Of a DNA stretch of 64,000 bases, positions 1,451 to 47,045 are shown piece by piece (the stretch's first letter is position 1; every line of letters starts with the position of its first letter). The stretch lies in the sequence record CP053388.1, one strand, 5' to 3'. Source of the DNA: Escherichia phage CMS-2020a. Below the pieces are notes generated by a model. The model had not been told where the DNA came from and ran no database searches. It saw only the letters and a program-made list of their open reading frames with translations. The position numbers and the translations under genes are program-made.

Positions 1451-1465
1451 TAGGTAAGTACTTAC
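1451..1465. promoter_or_regulatory. motif B palindrome
   Basis: taggtaagtacttac. Confidence 0.45.
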
Positions 1466-2301
1466 ACATGAGCGCCGTAAATTGCCCCAGCTTTAGTCCA
1501 TGTAGGCGCGTTGCCAGTTACGGCTTTACCAGCTGCTCCGCCGTTATATTCTGTACCGTTACCTTGAGTATTACATCTTCCTCCAGCAGCACCGACATTA
1601 CCACCCGAACCGCCTGTATATGCACTAAGAGACCCCTCACCAACAGATCCTTTACCAGGAGCGGAAATAGTACCAGCAGTTGCACCGGAACTCATATGAG
1701 AGGAAGACCCACCAGCACCGAATGGGCGACCACCGCCACCACCAAATATTAGTTTACCCCTGTTACCGCCGCCACCGCCGCCGCCACCTCCAGCGATTGC
1801 ACCATTATTCGTAATACGCAAGCGTGTACCGATGCCATTATTAATTGCGTTACCACCAGCAGCACCGGCAGCGTTACTACCACCATTGCCACCGCGTCCA
1901 TAGACAGTCACACCTGCGTTGATTACAAGGCTGATATAAGAGTTGGTAAGTGAACTCGGGAAATCTAAACATGGCACGCCGCTACTGGACGACACCAGAT
2001 CCCCTGTAATGGTAACAACGACTGGCGTCGCCCCCTGGGATTTTAAATAGTTGATCAGTGTGTCTTTGTTGTAGTTATGATTCGCACCGATGCTGTAATG
2101 AATTTCCTTAGAACGACCTGCTAACTGAGACATATTCCCAGCAGCAGACAATTGCACCGCCGTTCGAGCTGCACTCATCCATCTCTGGCCTGTCACACTG
2201 ACAGCCGAAGACCCAATCCAACCGGGAACACCGACAATTGGCACATCTAATCTCCTTTTTGATGTGAATATCCTGAATTGGTGAGGGTGGCCCCTCACCA
2301 T
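1462..2301 (-). CDS. glycine-rich protein (poly-Gly tracts; candidate adhesin or tail-fibre accessory)
   Basis: 279 aa with runs such as GGGGGGGGGN and many GGxGG repeats, directly downstream of the tail fibre gene. Confidence 0.6.
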   Translation of the reverse strand: MVRGHPHQFRIFTSKRRLDVPIVGVPGWIGSSAVSVTGQRWMSAARTAVQLSAAGNMSQLAGRSKEIHYSIGANHNYNKDTLINYLKSQGATPVVVTITGDLVSSSSGVPCLDFPSSLTNSYISLVINAGVTVYGRGGNGGSNAAGAAGGNAINNGIGTRLRITNNGAIAGGGGGGGGGNRGKLIFGGGGGRPFGAGGSSSHMSSGATAGTISAPGKGSVGEGSLSAYTGGSGGNVGAAGGRCNTQGNGTEYNGGAAGKAVTGNAPTWTKAGAIYGAHV

Positions 2302-2310
2302 TCACCTTGA

Positions 2311-5300
2311 TTACATTTTTGCCTTCAGTTCGCGCACTTCCTCGCGCAGCTCTTTGACAGCCTCGACCAACATGCCGATAACGCCGTTGTAGTTAAGACG
2401 CAGACGAGGCTCTCCTGACTGATCGTTATGGTCAACCGTTACCAGTTCAGGCTGAACATTCTGGACGTCCTGAGCGATGAGGCCGCCAGACTGCTCATAC
2501 CGGTCACAGACCTGAATCTCGTACAGAACACCTTCGATCCGATCCAGCTTGTCGAGCGCTCGTTCAATCTTGCGAATATTGCGTTTGCTACGACGGTCAG
2601 AGCGGATATAAACGTCATTAAAGCTGCCATTACCGCCACAAACCCAAGTACCATCATTCTGGAGGTATGCGTTCGCATCCGTGCCGTTTGCGGTACGTGA
2701 GTTGTTGATCATGTAAAAACCAAACTGACTGTTTCCCAAGCCACCCAAGAAGAATTTGCGATCCGCGTGGTCTTGTCTCAACAACGCTTGTGCAGAGCTT
2801 GTACTTACAGCGTTCCTCCCGAAGATGACGTTCTGGTTACGCATATCTATCCACGCGCCAGAGCCGCTGTTGATGGAAAAACGGTTGGCGTAAACCCACG
2901 CACTTGACGTGATGTCACCCGTTACACTCAACGGCTTAAGGCTTTGCAGCGTGCTATTAACGAACCTAAAAACATGGGCGCTATTGGCGTAAACATCCAG
3001 AATGCCATCTCCGTTCTGTTTAAAGCCGGTGTCATTGTCACCCAGAACAATGGAATTACCGCCAAGAGCACTGGATGTACCGATGCCCAGTGCACCATTC
3101 AATTGACCTCCAGATAATGATAACGCCCCAACATCAGCAGCAGTCGGTTTAATGTGCGAACTGTAAATTACATATACAGTTCCATCTGTCAGGCCTGTTG
3201 GTTTATTCGCTGTATAAGTTGGTGATGTATGAATCGTTACGCTGGCGTTACTGGTATAATCCCACTGGATATTAACACCTGTGGCGTAATTACCTATTTC
3301 TACATAAATGTCATAGGTATCACCGGATGTATTCACCCATGCAAAATTAGTAAATCCAACCGAGGTCCGTCGCCATAATGCACCAGTAATACCTTTGGGG
3401 TTCCCATTTCCTGCACGCAGAACCAGCTCAGAGATGCCTGCTTGCTGCGGGGAGCCAACGTTAAACCCTGCGCCACCAATCAGGCTTATGTAAACCACGG
3501 AACTGGCTTGTGGCATGGTTACAGTTGCCAGCTTGAACCATCCGGCACCACCACTAAAAGACATTGTTGCTGAGTTGATCGTGCCTATAGACCTTGGAGT
3601 TAGCTCAATATTTTTAGAACCGTCAAACGACACCCCATTTATAGTTCTAGCGGTTTGTAACTTGGTCGCTGTCGCTGCATTACCGGTTGTGTTCTGGTTA
3701 CCAGCAATGTTTACACCCGGCAGGTTGATATTGGCGGAGCCATCGAATGACACGCCGCCTATTGTGCGTGCTGTTTGCAGTTTTGTTGCAGTTGCAGCAT
3801 TACCGTTCAAACTACCATTGATGCCGCCAGTAACATTGAGTCCATTACCGATCGTAACAGCACCGCTGGTATTATTAATTATAATAGGTCGCAAACCGTT
3901 CCATGAACCTAATGTGTCTCCTGATGCTGTTAGCATGAAATATGTGTTCGATCCATCATTACGGATAAAGAATCCATAGTTGCCATAGGCAATGCGCAGA
4001 CCATTCGCCGATTTTGAAATAATCTCGCCAGCAGCAGTTAATCCGCCAGTTAACGCTCCTCCAGAAAGCGATAATGCTCCTACATCAGAAGCTGTTGGTT
4101 TGTTTCTAGTGTTATAAGAACGACGCCAGCCTGGCGCGTAATCACTGCCATTGTACACATAAATAAATTCCGCATTGTTAACACCACCATGACCCGATGT
4201 TGTTGTCGTTGTAACACGAATAGTGTAGTGGCTTGTTGCCTTATTACTAAACACCTCAATCACGGAACCAGATAGATCGATCCTACCGCAACCAGTGTCG
4301 TCTATATAATTATTGTTGGCGTAAGTCCATGAGCACCGTGCGATCCAATGTTTGTTTGTAAATGCCCCCTGATTATTTAGCCAAGTTATAAATTGAGCAG
4401 TCGTAAATGCCGTTCCGTTACCACTATTTAACCATCCAGCGGCAGCGGTTGGCGCGTTTATATCAGCCGGCTGAGGCATAAATCCAGTCGTGTAAACCTG
4501 CTCCCAACCACTTTCAAAACCATAGCCATCTCTTGAGGAACGGTAGAACAGACCACCATTTTTATAGTGAGCTTTAATTTGAAGCGTACGGCAACTACCT
4601 AAACCGGTATAAAAGTTGGCAAGAATATAACTGTGGCCTGTTCTATTTACATTATAAGCACCAGATTCAGCATTCCACGGCACGCCACCATCAGCATCCG
4701 CATATGACCCTGTTGCCCTTCTTGCGAAAGCGGCAACATGCGCAGCGGTTAAAGTGATATCAGTAGAACCATCAAATGGAACACCGGATATTTTTCTTAC
4801 CGTCTGAAGTTTTGTAGCAGTTGCAGCATTACCAGTGGTGTTCTGATTACCCGTAGTGTTTACACCTGGAAGGTTAATATTTGCAGAACCGTCGAAAACA
4901 ACTCCACCGATAGATCTTGCCGTCTGCAATTTCGTGGCTGTACTTGCATTACCATTCAATGAACCAGTTAATCCACCTGTAACAGACAACGGACCTGAAA
5001 CTGTTCCTCCGGTTGTTGGCAGTGCTCCAATATCTAACGGCGTCGGTTTCTGATGTGTGCTATACATCGTATAAACAACACCATCGGTAACGCTGGAAGG
5101 CTTACTCGCTGAATATGTTGGCGATGTATAAATAGAAACTGTCGCATTTGCAGTACAATCCCAATGGATATTTACACGAGTCGCATAATTGCCAATCTCA
5201 ACGTAAATATCATATGTATCGCCGGATGTGTTGATCCAGGCGAAATTCGTTAACCCGACGGCTGTACGCTTCCACAAAGCCCCGGTAATTCCTTTGGGGT

Positions 5301-7041
5301 TTCCATTGCCTGCTCGTAGAACCAGTTCTGAAATGCCTGCCTGATGTGGGGAACCGACGTTGTAACCAGCGCCACCAATCAATGCGATGTAAACGATGGA
5401 ACTCGCTTGTGGCATGGTAACCGTAGCCAGTTTGAACCACCCAGCCCCGCCAGAGAAAGACATCGTTACTGAATTTAAAGTACCAATATCTTTCGGCGTT
5501 AATGTTATATCCGCAGTCAGTGCTTTTCCGTTAACTTTTCGGTTAGATGGCACCCTGCTATTCGCATTGTCATTGGCTGCTTTAACTGCTTTTGGCGTTG
5601 CGGCCAGCGATTCACTGGTGCTATCAACAGCACTGCTAAGTTTCACAACACCTTTAGTTGTAAGGCTTGCGTCTTCCATCGCAACTGCACCGGCAATCTC
5701 TTCAGCACGATCAGCAGCAGCTTCCGCACGGGTCGCAGCGGATTCAGCAGCAGTTTTGCTCTGAGATGCTGCCGTCGCACTGCCTGCCGCCTCTGTTGCT
5801 TTCGTGGATGCCGTCGTGGCGCTGCCCTTCGCTGCTGACGCCTGTCTGGTCGCCTCATCTTTTGAAGCAGACGCAGATGATGCCGATGACGCTGCCGAAC
5901 TGGCGGACGATGCGGCTGCCGTTTTTGAGGATTCTGCACGGGTTTCCGACGCTTTCGCGTTCGTTTCGGATGTCTTCGCTGCGGAAGCAGACCTCGCTGC
6001 TGCGCTGGCCTGTTCAGTGGCTTCGCCAGCCTTCGTTGTGGCTGTTGAAGCAGACGATGCGGCACTTTCTGCCGATTTTCCGGCGGCGGTGGCACTGGCT
6101 GAGGCCTGCCCGGCACTTGTTGACGCGGCACTGGCAGACGACGCAGCCGCTGTTTTTGAGCCTGCCGCAGCTGAGGCACTCTGTCCCGCTGCCGTTTCAG
6201 AAGACCTGGCGTTCGTCTCGGACGTTTTTGCCGCCTTCGCGGAATTGCCTGCCGCTGTTGCCGAGGAGGCTGCACTACTGGCGCTCGAGGCTGCGCTCGT
6301 TTCTGATGATTTTGCCGCCTCTTTTGAAGCCGACGCATCTCTGGCTGAGGTGGCAGCTTCTGACGCTTTCGTGGTCGCGGTGGATGCAGAAGTGGCTGCA
6401 GATTTTTGTGACGCTGCAGCATTCGTTTCAGATTTTTTCGCAGCAGTTGCACTCGCACTTGCGGCACTTTGTGAGGATGCCGCAGCGGATGCACTTTGAG
6501 ACGCTTGAGAGGCTTTTTCTCCAGCGATATTGGCGCTTTCTGCTGCTGCGGCAGCACTGGCCGCCGCCTCACGAGCTTTGTCGCCAGCAGCATCAATCGC
6601 GTCAGTGTTATTTTTATACCACTCAACGTTTTCGTTGTGCTCGTTGACGATCTGCATTAGCGGCTTAACGGTCACTTCTGTACCGTCTTCACGCTCGATT
6701 GTCACCTCATCCAGAGCAGTCAACCAACTGCGCATGGACTTGGAATCAGCCGACATACGCGACATTAGTGCTGTAAAGCGCGCGCTAAACTGTGTTAAGT
6801 CGCCTTCATAGGTCGTAATGATTCGGCACGGAACTTCAGACTGAGTTTCGCCGGTATAAGGTTCTGAGAGAACAATGTTCGTATCACTGGTTACGCGCTT
6901 GATCTCATACAGCTTATTGTCGGGGCCAATGACGATCATCCCCGGCAACACACCATTAGCTGTTACGTTCCAGGCTGTCCCTGCCCCAACCAGAGTATTG
7001 CTACCCTGTGTAAATGTGATAGTACCTTCCCTGTACCACAT
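2311..7041 (-). CDS. long tail fibre protein with Ala/Ser-rich stalk, duplicated receptor-binding-type modules and C-terminal intramolecular chaperone (S74-like) domain
   Basis: 1576 aa; repeated TIGGVxFDGSxNIxL and NAATATKLQTAR fibre repeats; two copies of the MSFSGGAGWFKLATVTMPQASS module; C-terminal SDRRSKRNI motif. Confidence 0.9.
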   Translation of the reverse strand: MWYREGTITFTQGSNTLVGAGTAWNVTANGVLPGMIVIGPDNKLYEIKRVTSDTNIVLSEPYTGETQSEVPCRIITTYEGDLTQFSARFTALMSRMSADSKSMRSWLTALDEVTIEREDGTEVTVKPLMQIVNEHNENVEWYKNNTDAIDAAGDKAREAAASAAAAAESANIAGEKASQASQSASAAASSQSAASASATAAKKSETNAAASQKSAATSASTATTKASEAATSARDASASKEAAKSSETSAASSASSAASSATAAGNSAKAAKTSETNARSSETAAGQSASAAAGSKTAAASSASAASTSAGQASASATAAGKSAESAASSASTATTKAGEATEQASAAARSASAAKTSETNAKASETRAESSKTAAASSASSAASSASSASASKDEATRQASAAKGSATTASTKATEAAGSATAASQSKTAAESAATRAEAAADRAEEIAGAVAMEDASLTTKGVVKLSSAVDSTSESLAATPKAVKAANDNANSRVPSNRKVNGKALTADITLTPKDIGTLNSVTMSFSGGAGWFKLATVTMPQASSIVYIALIGGAGYNVGSPHQAGISELVLRAGNGNPKGITGALWKRTAVGLTNFAWINTSGDTYDIYVEIGNYATRVNIHWDCTANATVSIYTSPTYSASKPSSVTDGVVYTMYSTHQKPTPLDIGALPTTGGTVSGPLSVTGGLTGSLNGNASTATKLQTARSIGGVVFDGSANINLPGVNTTGNQNTTGNAATATKLQTVRKISGVPFDGSTDITLTAAHVAAFARRATGSYADADGGVPWNAESGAYNVNRTGHSYILANFYTGLGSCRTLQIKAHYKNGGLFYRSSRDGYGFESGWEQVYTTGFMPQPADINAPTAAAGWLNSGNGTAFTTAQFITWLNNQGAFTNKHWIARCSWTYANNNYIDDTGCGRIDLSGSVIEVFSNKATSHYTIRVTTTTTSGHGGVNNAEFIYVYNGSDYAPGWRRSYNTRNKPTASDVGALSLSGGALTGGLTAAGEIISKSANGLRIAYGNYGFFIRNDGSNTYFMLTASGDTLGSWNGLRPIIINNTSGAVTIGNGLNVTGGINGSLNGNAATATKLQTARTIGGVSFDGSANINLPGVNIAGNQNTTGNAATATKLQTARTINGVSFDGSKNIELTPRSIGTINSATMSFSGGAGWFKLATVTMPQASSVVYISLIGGAGFNVGSPQQAGISELVLRAGNGNPKGITGALWRRTSVGFTNFAWVNTSGDTYDIYVEIGNYATGVNIQWDYTSNASVTIHTSPTYTANKPTGLTDGTVYVIYSSHIKPTAADVGALSLSGGQLNGALGIGTSSALGGNSIVLGDNDTGFKQNGDGILDVYANSAHVFRFVNSTLQSLKPLSVTGDITSSAWVYANRFSINSGSGAWIDMRNQNVIFGRNAVSTSSAQALLRQDHADRKFFLGGLGNSQFGFYMINNSRTANGTDANAYLQNDGTWVCGGNGSFNDVYIRSDRRSKRNIRKIERALDKLDRIEGVLYEIQVCDRYEQSGGLIAQDVQNVQPELVTVDHNDQSGEPRLRLNYNGVIGMLVEAVKELREEVRELKAKM
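3125..3840 (-). repeat. intragenic direct repeat block, copy 2 (module X2 plus fibre-repeat set 2) within tail fibre gene
   Basis: About 80-85% nucleotide identity to 4760-5470; antisense ORFs at 3515 and 5414 start with the same MVTVASLNHPAPP peptide. Confidence 0.75.
4760..5470 (-). repeat. intragenic direct repeat block, copy 1 (module X1 plus fibre-repeat set 1) within tail fibre gene
   Basis: Paralogous to 3125-3840 (offsets about 1.15 and 1.9 kb for the two sub-modules). Confidence 0.75.
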
Positions 7042-7083
7042 GTTGAATATGCTCCTTGATTTGGCGGGCTATCCTTGCCCGCC

Positions 7084-7134: not shown

Positions 7135-10100
7135 TCACAGACGGCCAATTCTTACTCGTAAGACGTTGTTATCGTCATAAACGTCAATCCGCTGACCATT
7201 TATAACCAATCGCCCATTGCCGCCGCTATTACCGTTGATCTCAAGCGTTCCATTTTTGCCGAACCGCCATCCAGATCTACCGCTAACAAAATTGGTAGAT
7301 TGCAGATCGCCTACTTTTGCATTGGTGATTGTGCCATCCTTGATATACGCTCCATTCATATAGGCGATACTGTTTTCGATAACAAATGGCGTTGTGATCT
7401 TCCCGTTAACAGAGTTGACCAAACCAAACCTGTCAGCCTGCACCAAAAACTGAGAAAGGCCAGTGGTGTCGATACCAAGCGCAATACCAGCAACATACTT
7501 CTGCCCTCCGCTCGTTGAAGTTTCCATTTTCAACGTCCACGCGGTTGACACTTTTTTGTTGGTATCAGCAATAGCTGTTGCCTGCTGTTGAATTGTCGCG
7601 GTATTTCCATCCACCTCTGCTTTCAGAGTATCGATTCGCCCACTCAGAGCATTATCTGCCTGCGTTCTCGCTGTCGTTTCAGTTGTTACCGCCGCGGAAA
7701 TGTTGGCTGCCGTTTGAGACTCTAAGTTTGTGATTTGAGTCGCCAATGCGGCATCTTGCTCTGTACGCGTTTTCGTTTCGGTTGCTACAGCCGCTTTAAT
7801 ATCCTCTTTGTATTGAGAGGTCAGCTTGGTGATCTGAGACGACAACGCCGAGTCAGCATCAGTTCGAGCCTGCGTTTCAACTGCAACGGCCGCACTAATA
7901 TCTTTCGCTGTCTGTGCTTTTAAACTTGAAACCTCTTTTGTTAAAGCGGTATCACCATCTGCACGAGCCGTTGTTTCTCTGGCAAGAGACGCCTCGAGAT
8001 CATTAGCTTTTGCTGTAAGAGACGTAATCTGGGTAGACAATGCACTATCGGCATCAGTCCTTGCTTTTGTCTCTACAGCAACCGCTGCGGCAATATCAGT
8101 TCCGGTTTGTGCTCGCAGGCTGTTAATTTCTCGTGAGAGCGCCTGGTCAGCACTTGCCCTGGCCTCCTGCTCCTGAGTGATGGCAGCGGATATATCACCG
8201 TCAACCTTTGACTGAAGCTGGTTTATTTGTTTGGCTAACGCAGAGTCCCCGCTTGCTCGAGCCTCCTGCTCACTACGTATTGCAGCAGAAATATCATCAT
8301 CAACCTTTGCCTGAAGTTGGGTGATCTGGCTTGCCAGAGCCGAATCTTCCGTTGCTCGGGCTTCTTGCTCTTCCTTAATAGCTGCGACGATATCGTTGCT
8401 TACTTTCGACTCAAGCTGAGTGATCTGTGTCGTCAGAGCTTCATCGGCAGATGTACGAGCCTCCTGCTCTGTACTAATCGCCGCGCTGATATCTCCTTCA
8501 AACTTAGATTGCAGCTGAGTGACACGCTTTGCCAACGCTTCATCGCCATCGGCACGAGCGGTGGACTCTTCCAGAATACTGGCCTTAATGTCTTCGCCAA
8601 TTTCTACGCGAATTTCCTCAACCTTCGTGGCTATTGCAGACATATCATCAGCAAAGGTTTTCTGTGTTGTTGCGATCTTCGCGTTATTGACCATCTGCTT
8701 GTGCTGGTCTTCATCTTGACGAAGAGCCAGGTCAATATTTGTTTTGGCTAACGCCTCAATGTTCGTAGTCAGTTCTGCACTGGCACGATCGACCTCTGCA
8801 ACCGTCTTTTTCATTTCTTCAACGGCAGCGGAGCTTTCCTCTACCGTTGACTGCAACACTTCCAGTTGTTTAGCGTTTGCAGCATCGCCTTCAACACGAG
8901 CCTCGCTTTCCTTAGCAATAAGAGCCGCCGCTTCATCTCTTGCAGCCTTTATTGCCTCGACTGTATTAGCGAGAGCTTTATCGTGTTCAGATACGGTGTT
9001 TTCGATTTCAACAATTGCAGCATCAGTAGCATCAATTTTTTCAAACGCTTCATTGACCTTGTCAATCGTTGCCGAAACCTCACCTTTAAGCTCGGTTTGT
9101 GCGTTCTCCAAAGCATCGCTACGCTCGTTGAATTTTATTTCAAAATCCGCGAGGTTATCGCTGAACTGCTTATCTAATTCAGCTATATCTTCCTTAACGT
9201 CGTTTACCGCCCCCTCCAAAGATTCGACGCTCTGGTTGATATGCTCATTTAACTCGTCAACTGCTTCTTGAGAGGCTTTGCTGTTGATGTCCTCAAGCAG
9301 AGCCTGACCAAGCTCGGAAGATGTAATTTTGCCAGTCAGGAACGACAGTACATCGCGAGTTGTCGCCTCTGTACCCAAGTTTGAGTTCGGAGGACTTAAC
9401 ATACCTCGCTTGTTCGATGCTCGAACCCAGTAATACCACGTTTCGCTATCCCCAAGACCAGCATGTGTAAAGGTGGTGCTTGCAGACTCTGCGATCAGTT
9501 TCGCCGTATCCAGATTGTTGGTCTGGGATGCGTAAACATTAATGTGATCAAGGTCTACCGAATCTGGATTAACCCAATTCAGTATCACATTACGATAGTC
9601 TCCAACGGCCGTTAATGACGTTGGGGAATCCGGCGGTGTCATTGTGCCCAACACCTGATAAACGGTACTGATAATCTCTGTTTTTTTACCGTTGAATGAA
9701 ACCGCATACAGCTGGAAGTCGTAGCGTCCATTCTCCGCGACATTAACGATTTCGTATTGCTCTTCGGTTACACGCGCCGATTGCCAGTTCGATACATTGT
9801 TTTCATCAGAACGTCGCCAACTGATCCAATACTCTGGAGATTTCCCTTCCCATGTTGCAGTCAGTTTTACTGACAGGTTGCCAGGGCTTGAGAGATAAGT
9901 CCCTTCGGTGATTTGCAAATTAGACGGCTTGGAGTAAGTCGGGTCCAATACCGTCGTATTCTGCGGGATAAGCGTTGCACCATTGTCGATTGCCTCATAT
10001 TTAGACGGATTGTTCTCAACAGCGGTGATGTCAAAGCTACCCGGCGTTTCCCCCTGCGCGATGTTAACGATGCGAACGCGCATAGGTTCGAGATCTGGTT

Positions 10101-11868
10101 CTGTAATTGTCCAGACACCGTTCAAAACAGGCGTTTCCGCTGACGACAGGGCTTTTGAAAACGTAACCTTTGTTATGTTTTCGCCAGTTTCAAGAACATC
10201 GCGTTCAACGATTTTGCCTTCCTGATTCAGTATTCGAATAAAGCAGCCGCCTTTGGCTAACGACACCGGCGCATCGAGTGTGACGCTGTTTTTGGTAAAC
10301 GCCACAATTCGACCTGAGTTACGTTTGCCTGCGCGATATTTGTTCTGAATCAGAACGGTTTCACCAGGCATCAGAAATGACGCGTCTAAGCCGGCAGTAA
10401 ATGTAATTACATCCGACTCCATTCTGGCGGTATATAAAAGCCACAAACCAACTCGGTGAGCCTGCCCTCGGCTTGTACAGCCAAATGCTACGACTTCTGT
10501 CTTACGCTCACCATAACGGCGCATTGCGTCCTGATCTTCAACGTACTCGATGTTTTGCTTATAACCGTCCTCCTTGTTGTTGTAGGTTACGAGCGCAACG
10601 GATGGGCGATCTTTACGCGCAGAACCTTTATAGGTAAACAATCCATCTTTGACGTTAGAGTTGGTAAACATCATTACCGGATCTGATGGGCTATCCTGCA
10701 TGATGTTAACCATGCCACCAGCCCAAAACACCATACCGCGGAATGCACCGGCAATATCCTGAATTAATCGGTATGCGTCCTGTCGACTGGTGATCTGCGT
10801 ATTGATTGCAAAGCGTTTCTCTTTACCACCAAAGCCATCATCAACCTCTTCGTCACAATATCGACCGATCTGGTATAGCTGGCCGAGGTCAATCATAGAT
10901 TCCGACACATACTGACCAAGGCCATATCGAGCATTGGTAAGCAAATCAAAGAGAATCCACGCGGGGTTTGAAGAAGACAACAGCTTAAAAGTGCCATCCC
11001 ATACACCATCATAAGTGTTGCTGGCCTCGTTGTAGTTTGACGGCACGCGAATTTTTAATCCACGTACCAAATACGAACGAGATGGCATGGTGCTACCAAA
11101 CTGCTCAGAATTAACCTTCAGACCCACCAGCACAGAGTTTGGGTAGTTCATCGGTGTATCTACAATCTCACCTATTGAGTCCACCCATGTATCGTTATAG
11201 AGATACTGGCTGCTGTTATCATCGGTAATACGGACTACACGAACCTTGTACGCGCGTCCAGGCTTAGGCAGCTTCAGCTCATAGCTACGGTAATAAACAC
11301 CTGTCTTCTTTGCTGTTAGCTTAATGCCAACGCTTTTTTCACCTTCTGCGACCACATCTACAAATGTTGAGTCGCCATTTGCTATCTGGAACTTGTACTC
11401 AACGGTTGTACCGTTCGTGTCACCAGTTTTTTTATCTATGCTTCGCAAAGAAGGAAACTTCATGATGACACGAACCCGATCAGCTTCATCGTTATCGATT
11501 GAAACCGTTACATAATGTGTTTTTTTTAACTGGATATTGACGGATTTAGGCGTTTCAACGAAATCAAAGCCAGACATTGGAGTCTGGTCTTGCGAACCGT
11601 CGCGAAAATCCCATGTGATTCCGCTGAAGTTGGAGGAACCGTCTTCATTTACAATCGGCAGATCGTCGACAAAAATAGATCTTGCGCCATTTACCAAGCC
11701 GCCAATTACACCTTCCCCAAGAAGATCGAGGATAGCGGCCATTGCACGAGAATTTACGGTATCGTCGGCTTCAACCGGTGTACGGCTAGAGCTTTTGCTG
11801 CTTTTTTTACCACCCGCACCTGCAATAAACAGCGGTAACTTTTTCTTCTTGAACTGTTCCATGTTCAA
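7135..11868 (-). CDS. tail tip / host specificity protein (lambda J-like) with inserted coiled-coil repeat stalk
   Basis: 1577 aa; N-terminal region alignable to lambda J; about 10 tandem ~37-aa repeats of the ITQLxSKVxxDIxAAIxxEQEARxxxDxAL type. Confidence 0.9.
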   Translation of the reverse strand: MNMEQFKKKKLPLFIAGAGGKKSSKSSSRTPVEADDTVNSRAMAAILDLLGEGVIGGLVNGARSIFVDDLPIVNEDGSSNFSGITWDFRDGSQDQTPMSGFDFVETPKSVNIQLKKTHYVTVSIDNDEADRVRVIMKFPSLRSIDKKTGDTNGTTVEYKFQIANGDSTFVDVVAEGEKSVGIKLTAKKTGVYYRSYELKLPKPGRAYKVRVVRITDDNSSQYLYNDTWVDSIGEIVDTPMNYPNSVLVGLKVNSEQFGSTMPSRSYLVRGLKIRVPSNYNEASNTYDGVWDGTFKLLSSSNPAWILFDLLTNARYGLGQYVSESMIDLGQLYQIGRYCDEEVDDGFGGKEKRFAINTQITSRQDAYRLIQDIAGAFRGMVFWAGGMVNIMQDSPSDPVMMFTNSNVKDGLFTYKGSARKDRPSVALVTYNNKEDGYKQNIEYVEDQDAMRRYGERKTEVVAFGCTSRGQAHRVGLWLLYTARMESDVITFTAGLDASFLMPGETVLIQNKYRAGKRNSGRIVAFTKNSVTLDAPVSLAKGGCFIRILNQEGKIVERDVLETGENITKVTFSKALSSAETPVLNGVWTITEPDLEPMRVRIVNIAQGETPGSFDITAVENNPSKYEAIDNGATLIPQNTTVLDPTYSKPSNLQITEGTYLSSPGNLSVKLTATWEGKSPEYWISWRRSDENNVSNWQSARVTEEQYEIVNVAENGRYDFQLYAVSFNGKKTEIISTVYQVLGTMTPPDSPTSLTAVGDYRNVILNWVNPDSVDLDHINVYASQTNNLDTAKLIAESASTTFTHAGLGDSETWYYWVRASNKRGMLSPPNSNLGTEATTRDVLSFLTGKITSSELGQALLEDINSKASQEAVDELNEHINQSVESLEGAVNDVKEDIAELDKQFSDNLADFEIKFNERSDALENAQTELKGEVSATIDKVNEAFEKIDATDAAIVEIENTVSEHDKALANTVEAIKAARDEAAALIAKESEARVEGDAANAKQLEVLQSTVEESSAAVEEMKKTVAEVDRASAELTTNIEALAKTNIDLALRQDEDQHKQMVNNAKIATTQKTFADDMSAIATKVEEIRVEIGEDIKASILEESTARADGDEALAKRVTQLQSKFEGDISAAISTEQEARTSADEALTTQITQLESKVSNDIVAAIKEEQEARATEDSALASQITQLQAKVDDDISAAIRSEQEARASGDSALAKQINQLQSKVDGDISAAITQEQEARASADQALSREINSLRAQTGTDIAAAVAVETKARTDADSALSTQITSLTAKANDLEASLARETTARADGDTALTKEVSSLKAQTAKDISAAVAVETQARTDADSALSSQITKLTSQYKEDIKAAVATETKTRTEQDAALATQITNLESQTAANISAAVTTETTARTQADNALSGRIDTLKAEVDGNTATIQQQATAIADTNKKVSTAWTLKMETSTSGGQKYVAGIALGIDTTGLSQFLVQADRFGLVNSVNGKITTPFVIENSIAYMNGAYIKDGTITNAKVGDLQSTNFVSGRSGWRFGKNGTLEINGNSGGNGRLVINGQRIDVYDDNNVLRVRIGRL
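7670..8750 (-). repeat. tandem ~111-bp coding repeats (coiled-coil heptad array) inside J-like gene
   Basis: Repeating gcctcctgctc... units visible in DNA; protein repeats EQEARA(S/T)xDxAL. Confidence 0.7.
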
Positions 11869-43753: not shown

Positions 43754-45787
43754 TTACTTAACTTGGTGGCCTGGTTTAGCACCAGCATCCGGGCTTAACA
43801 GGAAGATATCTTTTCCGCCAGGGCCAGCAGCCATCACCATGCCTTCGGAGATACCGAAGCGCATTTTACGCGGTGCCAGGTTAGCCACCATAATGGTGTG
43901 ACGACCAATCAGTGCCTGTGGATCTGGATAAGCGGAACGAATGCCTGAGAAGACATTACGTTTTTCTCCGCCGAGATCCAGTGTCAGGCGCAGCAGTTTG
44001 TCAGAACCTTCGACAAACTCCGCGTTTTCAATCAGCGCCACACGCAGGTCAACTTTGGCGAAGTCGTCAAAGGTGATGGTTTCCTGAATCGGGGCGTCAG
44101 CCAGTGGGCCAGTTACCGGTGCAGCTGTGGCTTTCACTTCTTCTTTGGATGCTTCCACCAGTGCTTCCACCTGTTTCATATCGATACGGTTATACAGTGC
44201 CTTGAACGGATTCACTTTATGGCCCAGCAGCGGTTGCTGGATACCATCCCAGGTCAGTTCTGTATTCAGGAATGCTTCTGCACGTTCAGTCAGTTTCGGC
44301 AGTACCGGTTTCAGGTACGTCATCAGCACGCGGAACAGGTTAATGCCCATAGAGCAAATCGCCTGCAGATCGGCATCGCGTCCTTCCTGCTTCGCCACCA
44401 CCCACGGAGCCTGTTCATCAACATAGCGGTTAGCCAGGTCAGCCAGTGCCATGATTTCACGGATAGCTTTGCCAAATTCGCGGCTTTCCCATGCTTCGCC
44501 AATCACTTCAGCGGCATCAGTAAAGGTTTTGTACAGTTGCGGGTCAGCCAGTTCGCTTGCCAGCACGCCGTCAAAACGCTTGTTGATAAAGCCTGCATTA
44601 CGGGAGGCCAGGTTAACCACTTTGTTCACGATATCGGCATTCACGCGCTGAACGAAATCTTCCAGGTTGAGATCGATATCATCAATGCGCGAAGAGAGTT
44701 TCGCAGTGTAGTAGTAACGCAGGCTGTCGGCGTCAAAATGATTCAGCCAGGTGCTGGCTTTAATAAAGGTGCCGCGAGACTTGGACATCTTCGCACCGTT
44801 CACCGTCACATAGCCATGAACAAACAGGTTGGTCGGCTTGCGGAAGTTGCTGCCTTCTAGCATGGCAGGCCAGAACAGGCTGTGGAAGTAAACGATATCT
44901 TTGCCGATGAAGTGGTACAGCTCGGCGGTGGAGTCTTTCTTCCAGTATTCGTCGAAGCTGGTAGTGTCGCCGCGTTTGTCGCACAGATTCTTGAAGGAAC
45001 CCATGTAGCCAATCGGCGCGTCCAGCCAGACGTAGAAGTATTTGCCCGGTGCGTTCGGAATTTCAAAACCGAAGTAAGGTGCGTCACGGGAGATATCCCA
45101 CTGTTGCAGGCCAGATTCAAACCACTCCTGCATTTTGTTTGCCACCTGCTCCTGCAACGCACCGCTGCGGGTCCATGCCTGCAACATTTCGCTGAAAGAA
45201 GGCAGATCAAAGAAGAAGTGTTCGGAATCACGCATTACCGGTGTAGCGCCAGAAACTACCGATTTCGGCTCGATCAGTTCCGTCGGGCTGTATGTCGCGC
45301 CGCAGACTTCACAGTTATCGCCGTATTGATCCGGCGCTTTACATTTCGGGCATGTGCCTTTTACAAAACGGTCCGGCAGGAACATGCCTTTTTCCGGGTC
45401 GTACAGCTGAGAGATGGTGCGGTTTTTAATAAAACCGTTCTCTTTCAGGCGAGTGTAGATAAGCTCGGACAACTGACGGTTCTCTTCGCTGTGCGTCGAG
45501 TGATAGTTGTCATAGCTGATGTTAAAGCCTGCGAAATCAGTCTGATGTTCCTGACTCATTTCGCCAATCATCTGCTCCGGTGTGATACCAAGCTGCTGTG
45601 CTTTCAGCATGATCGGCGTACCGTGGGCATCGTCGGCACAGATGAAATTAACCTCGTGGCCGCGCATTCGCTGGTAACGAACCCAGACATCAGCCTGGAT
45701 GTGCTCCAGCATATGGCCGAGGTGGATTGAGCCGTTAGCGTACGGCAGCGCGCACGTCACCAGAATTTTCTTCGCGACTTGGGTCAT
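43754..45787 (-). CDS. metG: methionyl-tRNA synthetase
   Basis: Start [25 protein letters not shown] (HIGH motif), KMSKS motif, C-terminal tRNA-binding domain; matches enterobacterial MetG as recalled from memory. Confidence 0.97.
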
Positions 45788-45944
45788 AGTAGGCATTACT
45801 TCTTTGTAGTGAAAAGGGGCTTGATAGTAACAAAATGGCCTTATGTCTGCCATGTGATAACAGCATTTCTCATAAATGATTAAATGTCGTAGCTGGAGTA
45901 CACTACAAGGCGACAATTGCGCAAATTAAAATAAAGGAGACGGG

Positions 45945-47045
45945 ATGAGCGAGTCCAAATCGCCGGATGCCCTGAGAGCAATGGTAGCCGGTACGCTGGC
46001 TAATTTTCAGCACCCAACCCTGAAACACAACCTGACTACGCTTAAAGCGTTACACCATGTTGCGTTGATGGATGACACACTGCATGTCGAACTAATCATG
46101 CCTTTCGTGTGGAATAAGCCTTTTGAAGACCTGAAAGAGCAATGTAGTGGTGATCTGCTCCGTATCACTGGCGCAAAGGCTATTGACTGGAAGCTGTCGT
46201 ACAACATTGCCACGCTTAAGCGTGTCAAAAACCAACCAGGCATTAATGGCGTTAAGAACATTATCGCCGTCAGCTCAGGCAAGGGCGGCGTGGGTAAATC
46301 CTCCACGGCGGTAAACCTGGCACTGGCGTTGGCTGCTGAAGGTGCGAAAGTTGGTATTTTGGATGCCGATATCTATGGTCCATCAATTCCAACCATGCTG
46401 GGCGCGGAAAACCAACGTCCAACCTCACCTGACGGTACTCACATGGCACCTATCATGTCTCATGGCCTGGCAACCAACTCTATTGGTTATCTGGTCACCG
46501 ACGACAATGCAATGGTGTGGCGTGGACCGATGGCCAGCAAGGCGCTGATGCAGATGTTGCAGGAAACATTGTGGCCTGATCTGGACTATCTTGTTCTCGA
46601 TATGCCGCCGGGCACTGGTGATATTCAGTTGACGCTGGCGCAGAACATTCCTGTAACTGGTGCTGTTGTGGTAACTACGCCGCAAGACATCGCGCTGATC
46701 GATGCGAAGAAAGGCATTGTGATGTTCGAAAAAGTCGAAGTGCCGGTACTGGGTATCGTTGAAAACATGAGTGTGCATATTTGCAGTAACTGCGGTCATC
46801 ACGAGCCAATTTTTGGCACCGGTGGCGCACAGAAACTGGCCGAGAAATACAACACGCAGTTGTTAGGCCAAATGCCACTTCATATCTCTCTTCGTGAAGA
46901 TCTGGATAACGGAACACCAACCGTTATTAGTCGTCCAGATAGCGAATTTACAGCTATTTATCGTGACCTCGCAGATCGCGTTGCCGCCCAAATGTATTGG
47001 CAAGGTGAAGTAATACCTGGCGAAATCGCATTCCGCGCAGTGTGA
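45945..47045 (+). CDS. apbC: Fe-S cluster carrier ATPase ApbC/Mrp
   Basis: P-loop SGKGGVGKSS and CxxC motif; divergent from metG with AAGGAG RBS, the native enterobacterial arrangement. Confidence 0.95.
   Translation: MSESKSPDALRAMVAGTLANFQHPTLKHNLTTLKALHHVALMDDTLHVELIMPFVWNKPFEDLKEQCSGDLLRITGAKAIDWKLSYNIATLKRVKNQPGINGVKNIIAVSSGKGGVGKSSTAVNLALALAAEGAKVGILDADIYGPSIPTMLGAENQRPTSPDGTHMAPIMSHGLATNSIGYLVTDDNAMVWRGPMASKALMQMLQETLWPDLDYLVLDMPPGTGDIQLTLAQNIPVTGAVVVTTPQDIALIDAKKGIVMFEKVEVPVLGIVENMSVHICSNCGHHEPIFGTGGAQKLAEKYNTQLLGQMPLHISLREDLDNGTPTVISRPDSEFTAIYRDLADRVAAQMYWQGEVIPGEIAFRAV

Follow-up and report, generated by a model that had tools for sequence, protein, structure and literature searches.

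The question raised by the long tail fibre gene of Escherichia phage CMS-2020a (CP053388.1) is whether a fibre that contains one module twice is the product of a recent duplication, with the copies recombining to alter host range, or an assembly of older parts obtained from elsewhere. The window (the whole stretch of 64,000 nucleotides analysed, to which the positions below refer) carries a tail and lysis region, that of an SSU5-like siphovirus phage-plasmid of E. coli, and was syntenic with SSU5 and Cyrano as well as with hundreds of E. coli plasmids. The ORF is its long side tail fibre: the N-terminal domain was homologous to that of the lineage, the genes followed the order J-like gene, fibre, adhesin, holin, and endolysin, and the fibre gene was flanked by the J-like tip gene and by the adhesin and lysis genes, likewise in SSU5, Cyrano, and E. 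coli SSU5-like plasmids. A Shine-Dalgarno sequence (AAGGAG) was located 11 nt ahead of the ATG. A pseudogene was considered and rejected; the ORF is intact. Several related records annotate the fibre as truncated or as a pseudogene, showing that this gene is hard to annotate. ORFs of 231-327 aa antisense to the stalk were also rejected as genes, because they are by-products of the GC-rich, low-complexity stalk repeat.

The original prediction of a 1576-aa mosaic fibre held, with an intact reading frame and modules common to many other phages. The fibre gene, its parts from the N-terminus to the C-terminus, and the adhesin gene that follows it were as below.

2311..7041 (-): side tail fibre gene, an intact ORF of 1576 aa, stop codon at 2311-2313
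6592..7041 (-): N-terminal attachment domain, SSU5-lineage-specific, aa 1-150; attachment role suggested by its position
5677..6591 (-): Ala/Ser-rich heptad stalk, aa 151-455, predicted from composition and autocorrelation to be a trimeric coiled coil
5497..5676 (-): linker L, aa 456-515, fibre repeat 'GVVKLSSAVDS..ATPKAVK', resembling the constant part of Mu S
5026..5496 (-): module A copy 1, jelly-roll knob of the A1 type, aa 516-672, self-matching copy 2
4732..4974 (-): tandem 40-aa fibre repeats R1, 'GNAxTATKLQTxR..G..FDGS', units from aa 697 and 737
4102..4731 (-): module X, aa 771-980, a domain pair with homology to the variable part of Mu S', order swapped
3817..4101 (-): gp34-type trimerisation domain (PF21446), aa 981-1075
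3592..3816 (-): tandem 40-aa fibre repeats R2, units from aa 1080 and 1120
3127..3591 (-): module A copy 2, jelly-roll knob of the A2 type, aa 1151-1305
2602..3126 (-): distal module T, aa 1306-1480, with a gp37-like motif, a Mu S-like distal domain, and the DVYIR strand last
2314..2601 (-): intramolecular chaperone, Peptidase_S74 (PF13884), aa 1481-1576
1462..2244 (-): Gp38-type adhesin gene, 260 aa, GTG start, AAGGAG 7 nt upstream

The N-terminal domain (aa 1-150), for which a Pfam profile search gave no match, recurred at 98-100% identity in Cyrano and 13 E. coli plasmids, and at 82% in SSU5. The predicted Ala/Ser-rich stalk was clearly recognised in aa 151-455 (Ala, 39%; Ser, 24%; Thr, 10%): residue autocorrelation peaked at lags of 7, 14, 21, 28, and 35 (0.38-0.45 against a background of ~0.2; 0.45 at lag 7), a periodicity as expected for a putative coiled coil, and its DNA contained a 45-nt repeat family (D3). 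Linker L matched residues 105-156 of Mu S (5yvq) and Mu S' (8ju3), and in module X, aa 860-986 and 771-868 corresponded to residues 201-326 and 324-421 of the 8ju3 chain, respectively. The gp34-type domain (PF21446 at 5.7e-31, aa 956-1055) also matched the T4 gp34 structures 4uxe and 5nxf, and residues 234-338 of Mu S. Module T was 93% identical in SSU5; aa 1385-1490 matched residues 341-445 of Mu S, with ~70% of aligned residues identical as judged by eye, while aa 1284-1369 matched residues 1106-1193 of PaulHMueller gp37. The fibre would be a homotrimer built as beads on a string, in the order N-terminal attachment domain, coiled-coil stalk of ~300 residues, L, A1, two repeats, X, gp34-type domain, two repeats, A2, T, and S74 domain.

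The last 96 residues formed the S74 domain: Peptidase_S74 matched aa 1481-1535 over positions 1-58 of its 58-position profile (41.7 bits; cut-off, 22), and S1481 and K1486 in 'SDRRSK' gave the Ser-x4-Lys spacing. The C-terminal SDRRSKRNI, earlier proposed as a self-cleaving chaperone motif, was supported by this match and by the alignment of NDVYIR|SDRRSKRNI with 'DLNVS|SDRRIKK' of S16 gp37, in which SDRRIKK is the cleavage site (PMC7917993); self-cleavage is predicted at R1480|S1481. The chaperone would help the distal part trimerise and then cut itself off between these two residues, and its loss would expose the DVYIR strands; they match the form DVYIR|SDGRLKI, which has been described as the docking strand for Gp38 (PMC7917993).

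A gene for a Gp38-type adhesin was found immediately downstream of the fibre gene: the fibre stop codon (2311-2313) and the GTG at 2244, placed as annotated in relatives, were separated by a 66-nt gap containing the Shine-Dalgarno sequence. This gene lies outside positions 2311-7041, to which the original prediction was confined, and was missed there. The product matched the Gp38 profiles PF05268 (1.9e-70) and PF21721 (5.9e-15) and aligned over its full length with S16 gp38 (6f45_D; 4.7e-47), with the polyglycine motifs and the two N-terminal tryptophans kept; it had an N-terminal attachment domain and a glycine-rich receptor-binding domain, and its gene followed a fibre carrying the DVYIR strand and chaperone. 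By homology, Gp38 should dock on the exposed DVYIR tip, and its glycine-rich C-terminal domain would then contact the receptor. The docking geometry is assumed, since the N-terminal docking domain differs from T-even versions. Gp38 is the probable receptor binder, and OmpA is the predicted receptor because aa ~101-260 were nearly identical, with few positions differing, to gp38 of PaulHMueller (Bas45), which depends on OmpA (PMC8594841). On the other hand, module T itself might contribute to binding, since part of it is homologous to a portion of the distal region of Mu S, a stretch that may contact LPS in Mu; the Mu S and S' fibres are reported to recognise the LPS core (PMC11821841).

Module A matched 673 representative proteins and occurred in 295 phage records, including T2 gp37, with 44% identity to Bas45 gp37. 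In each of the 64 matching representative proteins of at least 600 aa, 114 aa or more separated its core from the C-terminus, and 30 residues were invariant across 22 homologues; a homologue search with module A gave short partial proteins only, which were used for alignment and not for architecture. No name is given to this domain in the Sf14 paper. In a monomer model, which holds no information on the trimer, the fold was a jelly-roll resembling the β-sandwich of tailspike-like proteins and, weakly, galectins and CBMs. We infer that the match to WceF concerns its jelly-roll domain (residues 531-667; PMC7949094), the fold search itself giving no aligned WceF residues. The internal position, the invariant residues, and the low dN between the two copies (0.146) differ from what a terminal receptor-binding domain would show, and the earlier description of the copies as receptor-binding-type modules was not sustained, module A being internal in 64 of 64 proteins and conserved in T2-like gp37 and many other fibres. 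The A modules most likely act as structural knobs, of a jelly-roll type that is common inside T2-like, Felix O1-like, Moogle-like, lambdoid, and SSU5-like fibres.

A multivalent fibre, in which the two A knobs, and possibly X and T, are auxiliary glycan-binding sites (LPS/O-antigen) along the shaft, beside the protein receptor of Gp38, appears unlikely to us. It would fit the likeness of the A fold to tailspike-like β-sandwiches (and, weakly, to galectins and CBMs), the strong purifying selection on both A copies, the homology of X and T to parts of Mu S' and S, reported LPS-core recognisers (PMC11821841), and the existence of fibres with two receptor domains, such as T-shaped fibres (PMC11990801). 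However, module A is highly conserved across phages of E. coli, Salmonella, and Acinetobacter, which is typical of structural parts rather than of receptor surfaces; dN was low, invariant residues were many, no ligand site was identified, and the extreme C-terminus of Mu is replaced here by the chaperone. If the fibre were multivalent, it would read several receptors in series, and internal swaps would tune host range as much as tip swaps. In a weaker variant of this unlikely reading, the fully randomised synonymous sites of A1 and A2 would reflect selection against recombination between the copies.

The relationship between the two copies bears on whether they recombine. When the fibre protein was split into parts, self-BLASTP matched aa 495-699 with aa 1126-1330 (68% identity over 207 aa; E 3e-96), and, as a second match, aa 680-789 with aa 1063-1168 (66%; E 2e-36). 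The two diverged modules of ~150 aa that had been predicted were therefore present (aa 516-672 and 1151-1305), as were tandem repeats beside each of them, located about within the claimed 3125-3840 and 4760-5470. In DNA, nt 1554-2000 of the gene matched nt 3453-3899 (73.7% identity; E 1e-75), and a repeat search returned the pair 3107-3406/5006-5305 and four 79-nt units at 3606, 3726, 4755, and 4875. The claim of a ~0.7-kb duplication was correct in that there are two copies with repeats, but these do not form one contiguous 0.7-kb block: the alignable DNA consisted of ~450 nt plus short repeats, and the module preceded the repeats in the first copy and followed them in the second.

Over 162 aligned codons, A1 and A2 had a pS of 0.75 (saturated) and the dN given above; their DNA identity was 71-74%, and the longest exact match measured 17 nt for the repeats and 14 nt for the module. 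Each copy had its own near-identical counterparts: 10 related fibres carried A1-type copies of 96-100% identity (for the lambdoid phage phi458, ~97% in DNA), and A2-type copies were 94-100% identical across relatives. Because of the saturated synonymous sites, the 17-nt longest run, and these separate counterparts, the two copies are judged to be old paralogues, and not a recent duplication. Efficient recombination by RecA needs roughly 23-27 bp, and the longest exact match falls below this minimum. A chimeric L+A1/A2+T query, representing what a deletion would leave, had no full-length counterpart among 5,426 complete E. coli genomes; within these complete E. coli assemblies, the best coverage was 82% and never reached into T. 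By these measures, the A copies are poorly suited to recombining with each other.

The proposal that a recent duplication of a receptor-binding-type module permits recombination in cis, generating deletion and duplication variants and, with them, a change in host range, is already largely refuted and appears very unlikely. Both copies do exist, as do the repeat pairs, and in an unrelated fibre fragment (P0076), an apparent perfect tandem duplication of a 317-aa repeats-A-gp34 block suggests that such events are possible in this fibre family; nevertheless, the divergence of the copies at synonymous sites and in DNA, the short identical run, the near-identical orthologues of each copy elsewhere, the absence of an L-A-T deletion product, and the internal rather than terminal position of module A all argue against it. 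The part of the original prediction that offered the copies as a substrate for homologous recombination failed on these grounds. An assembly artefact (a collapsed or expanded repeat), which the original prediction had named as its refutation, is extremely improbable, and nothing was found in its favour: over a quarter of the DNA positions differ between the copies, so that an assembler could not confuse them, two further complete plasmids (H71 and H72; L002) show this architecture in colinear form over 5.8 kb at 96.7%, A1 and A2 types also co-occur in the relatives L003 and L006, and the fibre ORF is intact.

Exchange between phages was apparent from the relatives, in which 15 related loci showed differing module combinations; the panel was picked by BLAST coverage, and the frequencies of architectures in it are not population estimates. 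Breakpoints recurred at aa ~496 (in linker L), 697-768 (at R1), 1091-1148 (at R2), 1324, and 1423, and a lambdoid prophage fibre combined the same L linker (98%) with an A2-type module, switching where A begins. These results indicated that modules are shuffled in trans, from phage to phage, with conserved linkers and repeats as the sites. Modularity as a driver of host-range variation is, as a general idea, right, but it operates between phages at linkers, not between the copies: host range in this lineage would vary by swapping whole modules and Gp38 loops with other phages, and recombination of A1 with A2 within one gene would not be its source. An invertible segment like the G region of Mu was rejected because a single ORF on one strand contains every module. 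Taken together, this is probably an SSU5-like fibre trimer of exchangeable modules, self-cleaved and tipped with Gp38 (OmpA being the predicted receptor), in which the A modules are structural knobs and old paralogues and host range changes through exchange in trans.

With the A modules being old paralogues, the fibre observation is real but ordinary, and the biology is expected rather than surprising. It provides a worked example of tail fibres assembled from a module pool of phage-plasmids, lambdoid prophages, Mu-like phages, and virulent T-even phages, and yields two predictions for a widespread E. coli phage-plasmid lineage: OmpA recognition through the T-even-like half of Gp38, and maturation at R1480|S1481. 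SSU5-like phage-plasmids have been reported with antibiotic resistance genes (PMC9600943), and their host-range determinants are therefore of some practical value.

Among known systems, SSU5 (fibre SSU5_021; 'tail fiber adhesin' SSU5_022) and Cyrano (CYRAN_21) have the same locus, from the J-like tip gene to the lysis genes, and a homologous N-terminal domain (82% and 100%, respectively). SSU5 shares the T module (93%) and S74 chaperone (94%), but its single A module is very diverged (33-36%), A2 is lacking, and the adhesin gene is shorter (178 aa); with Cyrano, the stalk, L, A1, and repeats are held in common at 97% DNA identity, whereas its fibre has no T or S74 match and the stretch shown carries no annotated Gp38 gene. 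Unlike both, the present fibre has A1, A2, and a full-length Gp38 together. The T2/S16-type tip (PDB 6F45) similarly has the S74 chaperone, the SDRRxK site after the docking strand, and a Gp38, encoded directly downstream, that has N-terminal tryptophans and polyglycine motifs, and T2-type gp37 also contains module A and the 'ALGGNS..GDxDTGxKQNGDG' motif. It differs in belonging to a virulent myovirus, and not a temperate siphovirus phage-plasmid; furthermore, a Mu S-like domain of ~100 aa lies here between the gp37-like motif and DVYIR, and the Gp38 docking domain is lineage-specific. In Mu S (gp49, 5YVQ), L, the gp34-type domain, and T are colinear with this fibre, and the variable part of Mu S' (gp52, 8JU3) matches X, although with the subdomains in opposite order. 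In contrast to Mu, A1, repeats, X, repeats, and A2 are inserted here, the C-terminal ~60 residues of Mu S are replaced by the intramolecular chaperone and Gp38, and an invertible segment is absent; the fibre of Mu forms a complex with a separate assembly protein (PMC11990801). Lambdoid Stf fibres (phi458, mEp332, and an E. coli W409 prophage) have the stalk, L, A, and repeats in common with this fibre (85-97% DNA identity), but a different N-terminal domain (PF08400 type) and tips that depend on Tfa. The chaperones of K1F endosialidase and T5 pb1 belong to the same Pfam family as the S74 domain and have the same Ser-x4-Lys spacing at its start; there, the matured tip itself binds or cleaves the receptor, whereas cleavage in the present fibre is expected to make room for a separate adhesin.

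The fibre gene (2311..7041, minus strand) had an intact reading frame encoding 1576 aa, with a Shine-Dalgarno sequence (AAGGAG) 11 nt upstream of its ATG. No identical database record was found for the fibre locus; the closest were two complete plasmids (H71 and H72), with 96.7% identity across all 5.8 kb. Sequence matches to solved structures and Pfam assigned the following chain of modules.

Modules of the side tail fibre (minus strand, aa numbering)
1-150, N-terminal domain, lineage-specific, with no Pfam match
151-455, stalk, coiled coil
456-515, linker L, constant part of Mu S
516-672, A1, module A family
~697-776, two fibre repeats
771-980 (window 4102-4731), X, variable part of Mu S' (8ju3)
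981-1075, gp34-type trimerisation domain (PF21446; T4 gp34 and Mu S structures)
~1080-1150, two fibre repeats
1151-1305, A2, module A family
1306-1480, T, gp37-like motif and then Mu S-like domain
1481-1576, intramolecular chaperone (Peptidase_S74)

The stalk consisted of Ala (39%), Ser (24%), and Thr (10%), and its residue autocorrelation was 0.38-0.45 at lags of 7, 14, 21, 28, and 35 (about 0.2 elsewhere), as in a probable heptad coiled coil. The four 40-aa repeat units (GNAxTATKLQTxR..G..FDGS) started at aa 697, 737, 1080, and 1120, and the linker KPTxxDxGAL recurred after A1, X, and A2. The two subdomains of X were in the reverse order of Mu S' (query 860-986 with chain 201-326, and query 771-868 with chain 324-421): a domain swap or circular-permutation-like rearrangement within the fibre shaft. 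T began with a motif common to T2-type gp37, followed by a domain closely resembling Mu S 341-445 (identity, judged by eye, at about 70% of the aligned positions). In RefSeq, the fibre N-terminus was shortened in several relatives, and a 684-nt "hypothetical protein" was called antisense to the fibre within the Ala/Ser stalk (L003 6054-6737, L004 6320-7003, and L008 6102-6785), in spite of a fibre frame that was intact from stop to stop in all three. These antisense ORFs, and those of 231-327 aa in the window, look like by-products of the low-complexity repeat.

Self-comparison of the fibre aligned aa 495-699 with aa 1126-1330 (68% over 207 aa, E 3e-96) and aa 680-789 with aa 1063-1168 (66%, E 2e-36). 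A repeat search of the DNA located the module copies at 3107-3406 and 5006-5305, and 79-nt units at 3606, 3726, 4755, and 4875. The original prediction of two diverged copies with adjacent repeats was therefore correct, including their positions; however, the copies did not form a single contiguous 0.7-kb duplication: the module preceded the repeats in the first and followed them in the second. An assembly artefact was rejected: the copies were too unlike for an assembler to collapse or expand, two further complete plasmids shared the colinear layout at 96.7% identity, and the reading frame was open.

The copies had also been proposed as a substrate for recombination within the gene. Module A copies shared 73.7% DNA identity across 449 nt; over 162 aligned codons, protein identity between A1 and A2 was 79% and DNA identity 71%, and the proportion of synonymous differences was 0.75, namely, full saturation (dN, 0.146). 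The longest exact DNA matches between the copy regions, 17 nt (repeats) and 14 nt (module), were below the minimum of 23-27 bp for efficient RecA recombination. Both copies had separate close orthologues: ten related fibres carried A1-type modules at 96-100% identity, and four carried A2-type modules at 94-100%. A query mimicking the deletion product fused L and the first half of A1 to the latter half of A2 and the beginning of T; in 5,426 complete E. coli genomes, the best coverage of this chimeric query was 82%, and no match extended into T. These results make A1 and A2 old paralogues under purifying selection, rather than a fresh duplication; intragenic recombination between the two is at most rare.

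A receptor-binding function for the module was not upheld. A profile search retrieved 673 representative proteins (E ≤ 1e-3) among 1.84 billion; 210 were fetched, and 139 of these had a near-complete core. In all 64 near-complete-core proteins of at least 600 aa, the core ended at least 114 aa ahead of the C-terminus. Module A was present in 295 phage records, including T2 gp37, Felix O1-like and Moogle-like fibres, and Acinetobacter T4-like phages, and was 44% identical to part of gp37 from phage PaulHMueller (Bas45). With a deeper alignment, AlphaFold2 gave a confident, all-beta model (pLDDT 87.5, pTM 0.80). WceF consists of a short triple beta-helix followed by an eight-stranded jelly-roll sandwich (PMC7949094); the aligned residues are not listed in the match output, and we infer that the sandwich is the part matching module A. 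Module A fits best as a jelly-roll knob internal to the fibre. A lectin-like side function is conceivable. A multivalent fibre, whose internal modules would also bind, is improbable. Only two other fetched proteins had two cores. In one, an SSU5-type fibre, the copies were 29% identical. In the other, a 791-aa fragment (P0076), a 317-aa block (two repeats, an A2-type module, and the gp34-type domain) was perfectly duplicated in tandem, with 143/143 identical residues in the A cores, which points either to misassembly or to unequal crossover between the repeats in the very recent past.

Exchange between phages was well supported by sequence comparison. Module combinations varied among 15 related loci.

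Module A content of the related loci
A1 and A2: L002, L003, L006
A2 only: L004
A1-type only: L001, L005, L007, L010, L012, L013, L014
One very diverged A (33-36%): L015 (SSU5)
Neither A1 nor A2: L008, L009, L011

The tips also differed: chaperone and Gp38 in most, an annotated tail fibre assembly protein in AH04, and a short adhesin in SSU5. The ends of high-identity DNA segments recurred at aa ~496, 697-768, 1091-1148, 1324, and 1423, coinciding with linkers and repeats. In a lambdoid prophage fibre from strain W409, L (98%) was fused to an A2-type module (91%), with a switch from A1-like to A2-like DNA within the first 60 nt of the module. Together, these observations give good support to module exchange at conserved joints.

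The predicted self-cleaving chaperone was recognized as Peptidase_S74 (aa 1481-1535; 41.7 bits, cut-off 22). S16 gp37 trimerises and then removes its own chaperone at DLNVS|SDRRIKK, uncovering the surface on which Gp38 docks, and the equivalent sequence in some Yersinia T4-like phages is DVYIR|SDGRLKI (PMC7917993). Since NDVYIR|SDRRSKRNI of the fibre aligned with the S16 site, self-cleavage is predicted between R1480 and S1481; Ser1481 and Lys1486 would be the catalytic pair, and Gp38 would then cap the DVYIR tip. A 260-aa ORF just downstream, absent from the original prediction, matched PF05268 (1.9e-70) and Gp38_N (5.9e-15), and aligned over its full length with S16 gp38 (6f45_D; 4.7e-47), with polyglycine runs and both N-terminal tryptophans conserved. 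This ORF encodes a T2/S16-type Gp38 adhesin, most likely from GTG at 2244 (AAGGAG 7 nt upstream; relatives are annotated from the same position). Residues about 101-260, a region with all of the glycine motifs and their intervening variable loops, differed from Bas45 gp38 at only a handful of positions, while the N-terminal docking domain was unlike that of Bas45 and common to other plasmids. Since Bas45 depends on OmpA (PMC8594841), OmpA is the predicted receptor. Gp38 of related plasmids (L006 and L010) had other loop sets, as expected for this adhesin.

Upstream of the fibre was the following gene.
7135..11868 (-), lambda-J-like tip protein, 1577 aa, with FNIII-A_GpJ, Phage-tail_3, and Phage_Tail_Tip domains

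This protein was unusually long: an insert of ~500 residues of repetitive, apparently coiled-coil sequence (roughly aa 830-1390; motifs resembling DISAAI..EQEAR..AD.AL..QI.QL) separated its C-terminal tip domain from the fibronectin-like domains. Between the J-like stop (7135) and the fibre ATG (7041), a perfect, GC-rich hairpin (GGCGGGC-aaggata-GCCCGCC; ~7063-7083, minus strand) might be a terminator, attenuator, or RNA stability element. Tail protein L, an NlpC/P60 K-like protein, and the tape measure protein lay past the J-like gene, and the 260-aa gene, a holin-like gene, and endolysin downstream of the fibre. This order was common to Escherichia phage Cyrano, Salmonella phage SSU5, and hundreds of E. 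coli plasmids (~110 kb, non-mobilisable) at 93-97% DNA identity, which indicates that the window belongs to an SSU5-like phage-plasmid. Elsewhere, the window encoded a full-length, 720-aa methionyl-tRNA synthetase (43754-45916, minus strand; PF09334 5e-166; tRNA_bind and Anticodon_3 domains also present), where GC content was locally higher (0.515 vs 0.43-0.46), next to apbC (45945-47045, plus strand). An aminoacyl-tRNA synthetase is unusual phage cargo; both genes were kept at 95-99% in about 200 SSU5-like plasmids, in which the synthetase is annotated as metG.

The mosaic fibre and self-cleaving chaperone are thus retained, without the cis-recombination substrate or receptor-binding module, and the system, in which an SSU5-type fibre carries a tip of the T2/S16 type (chaperone plus Gp38), represents a new arrangement within a familiar class.
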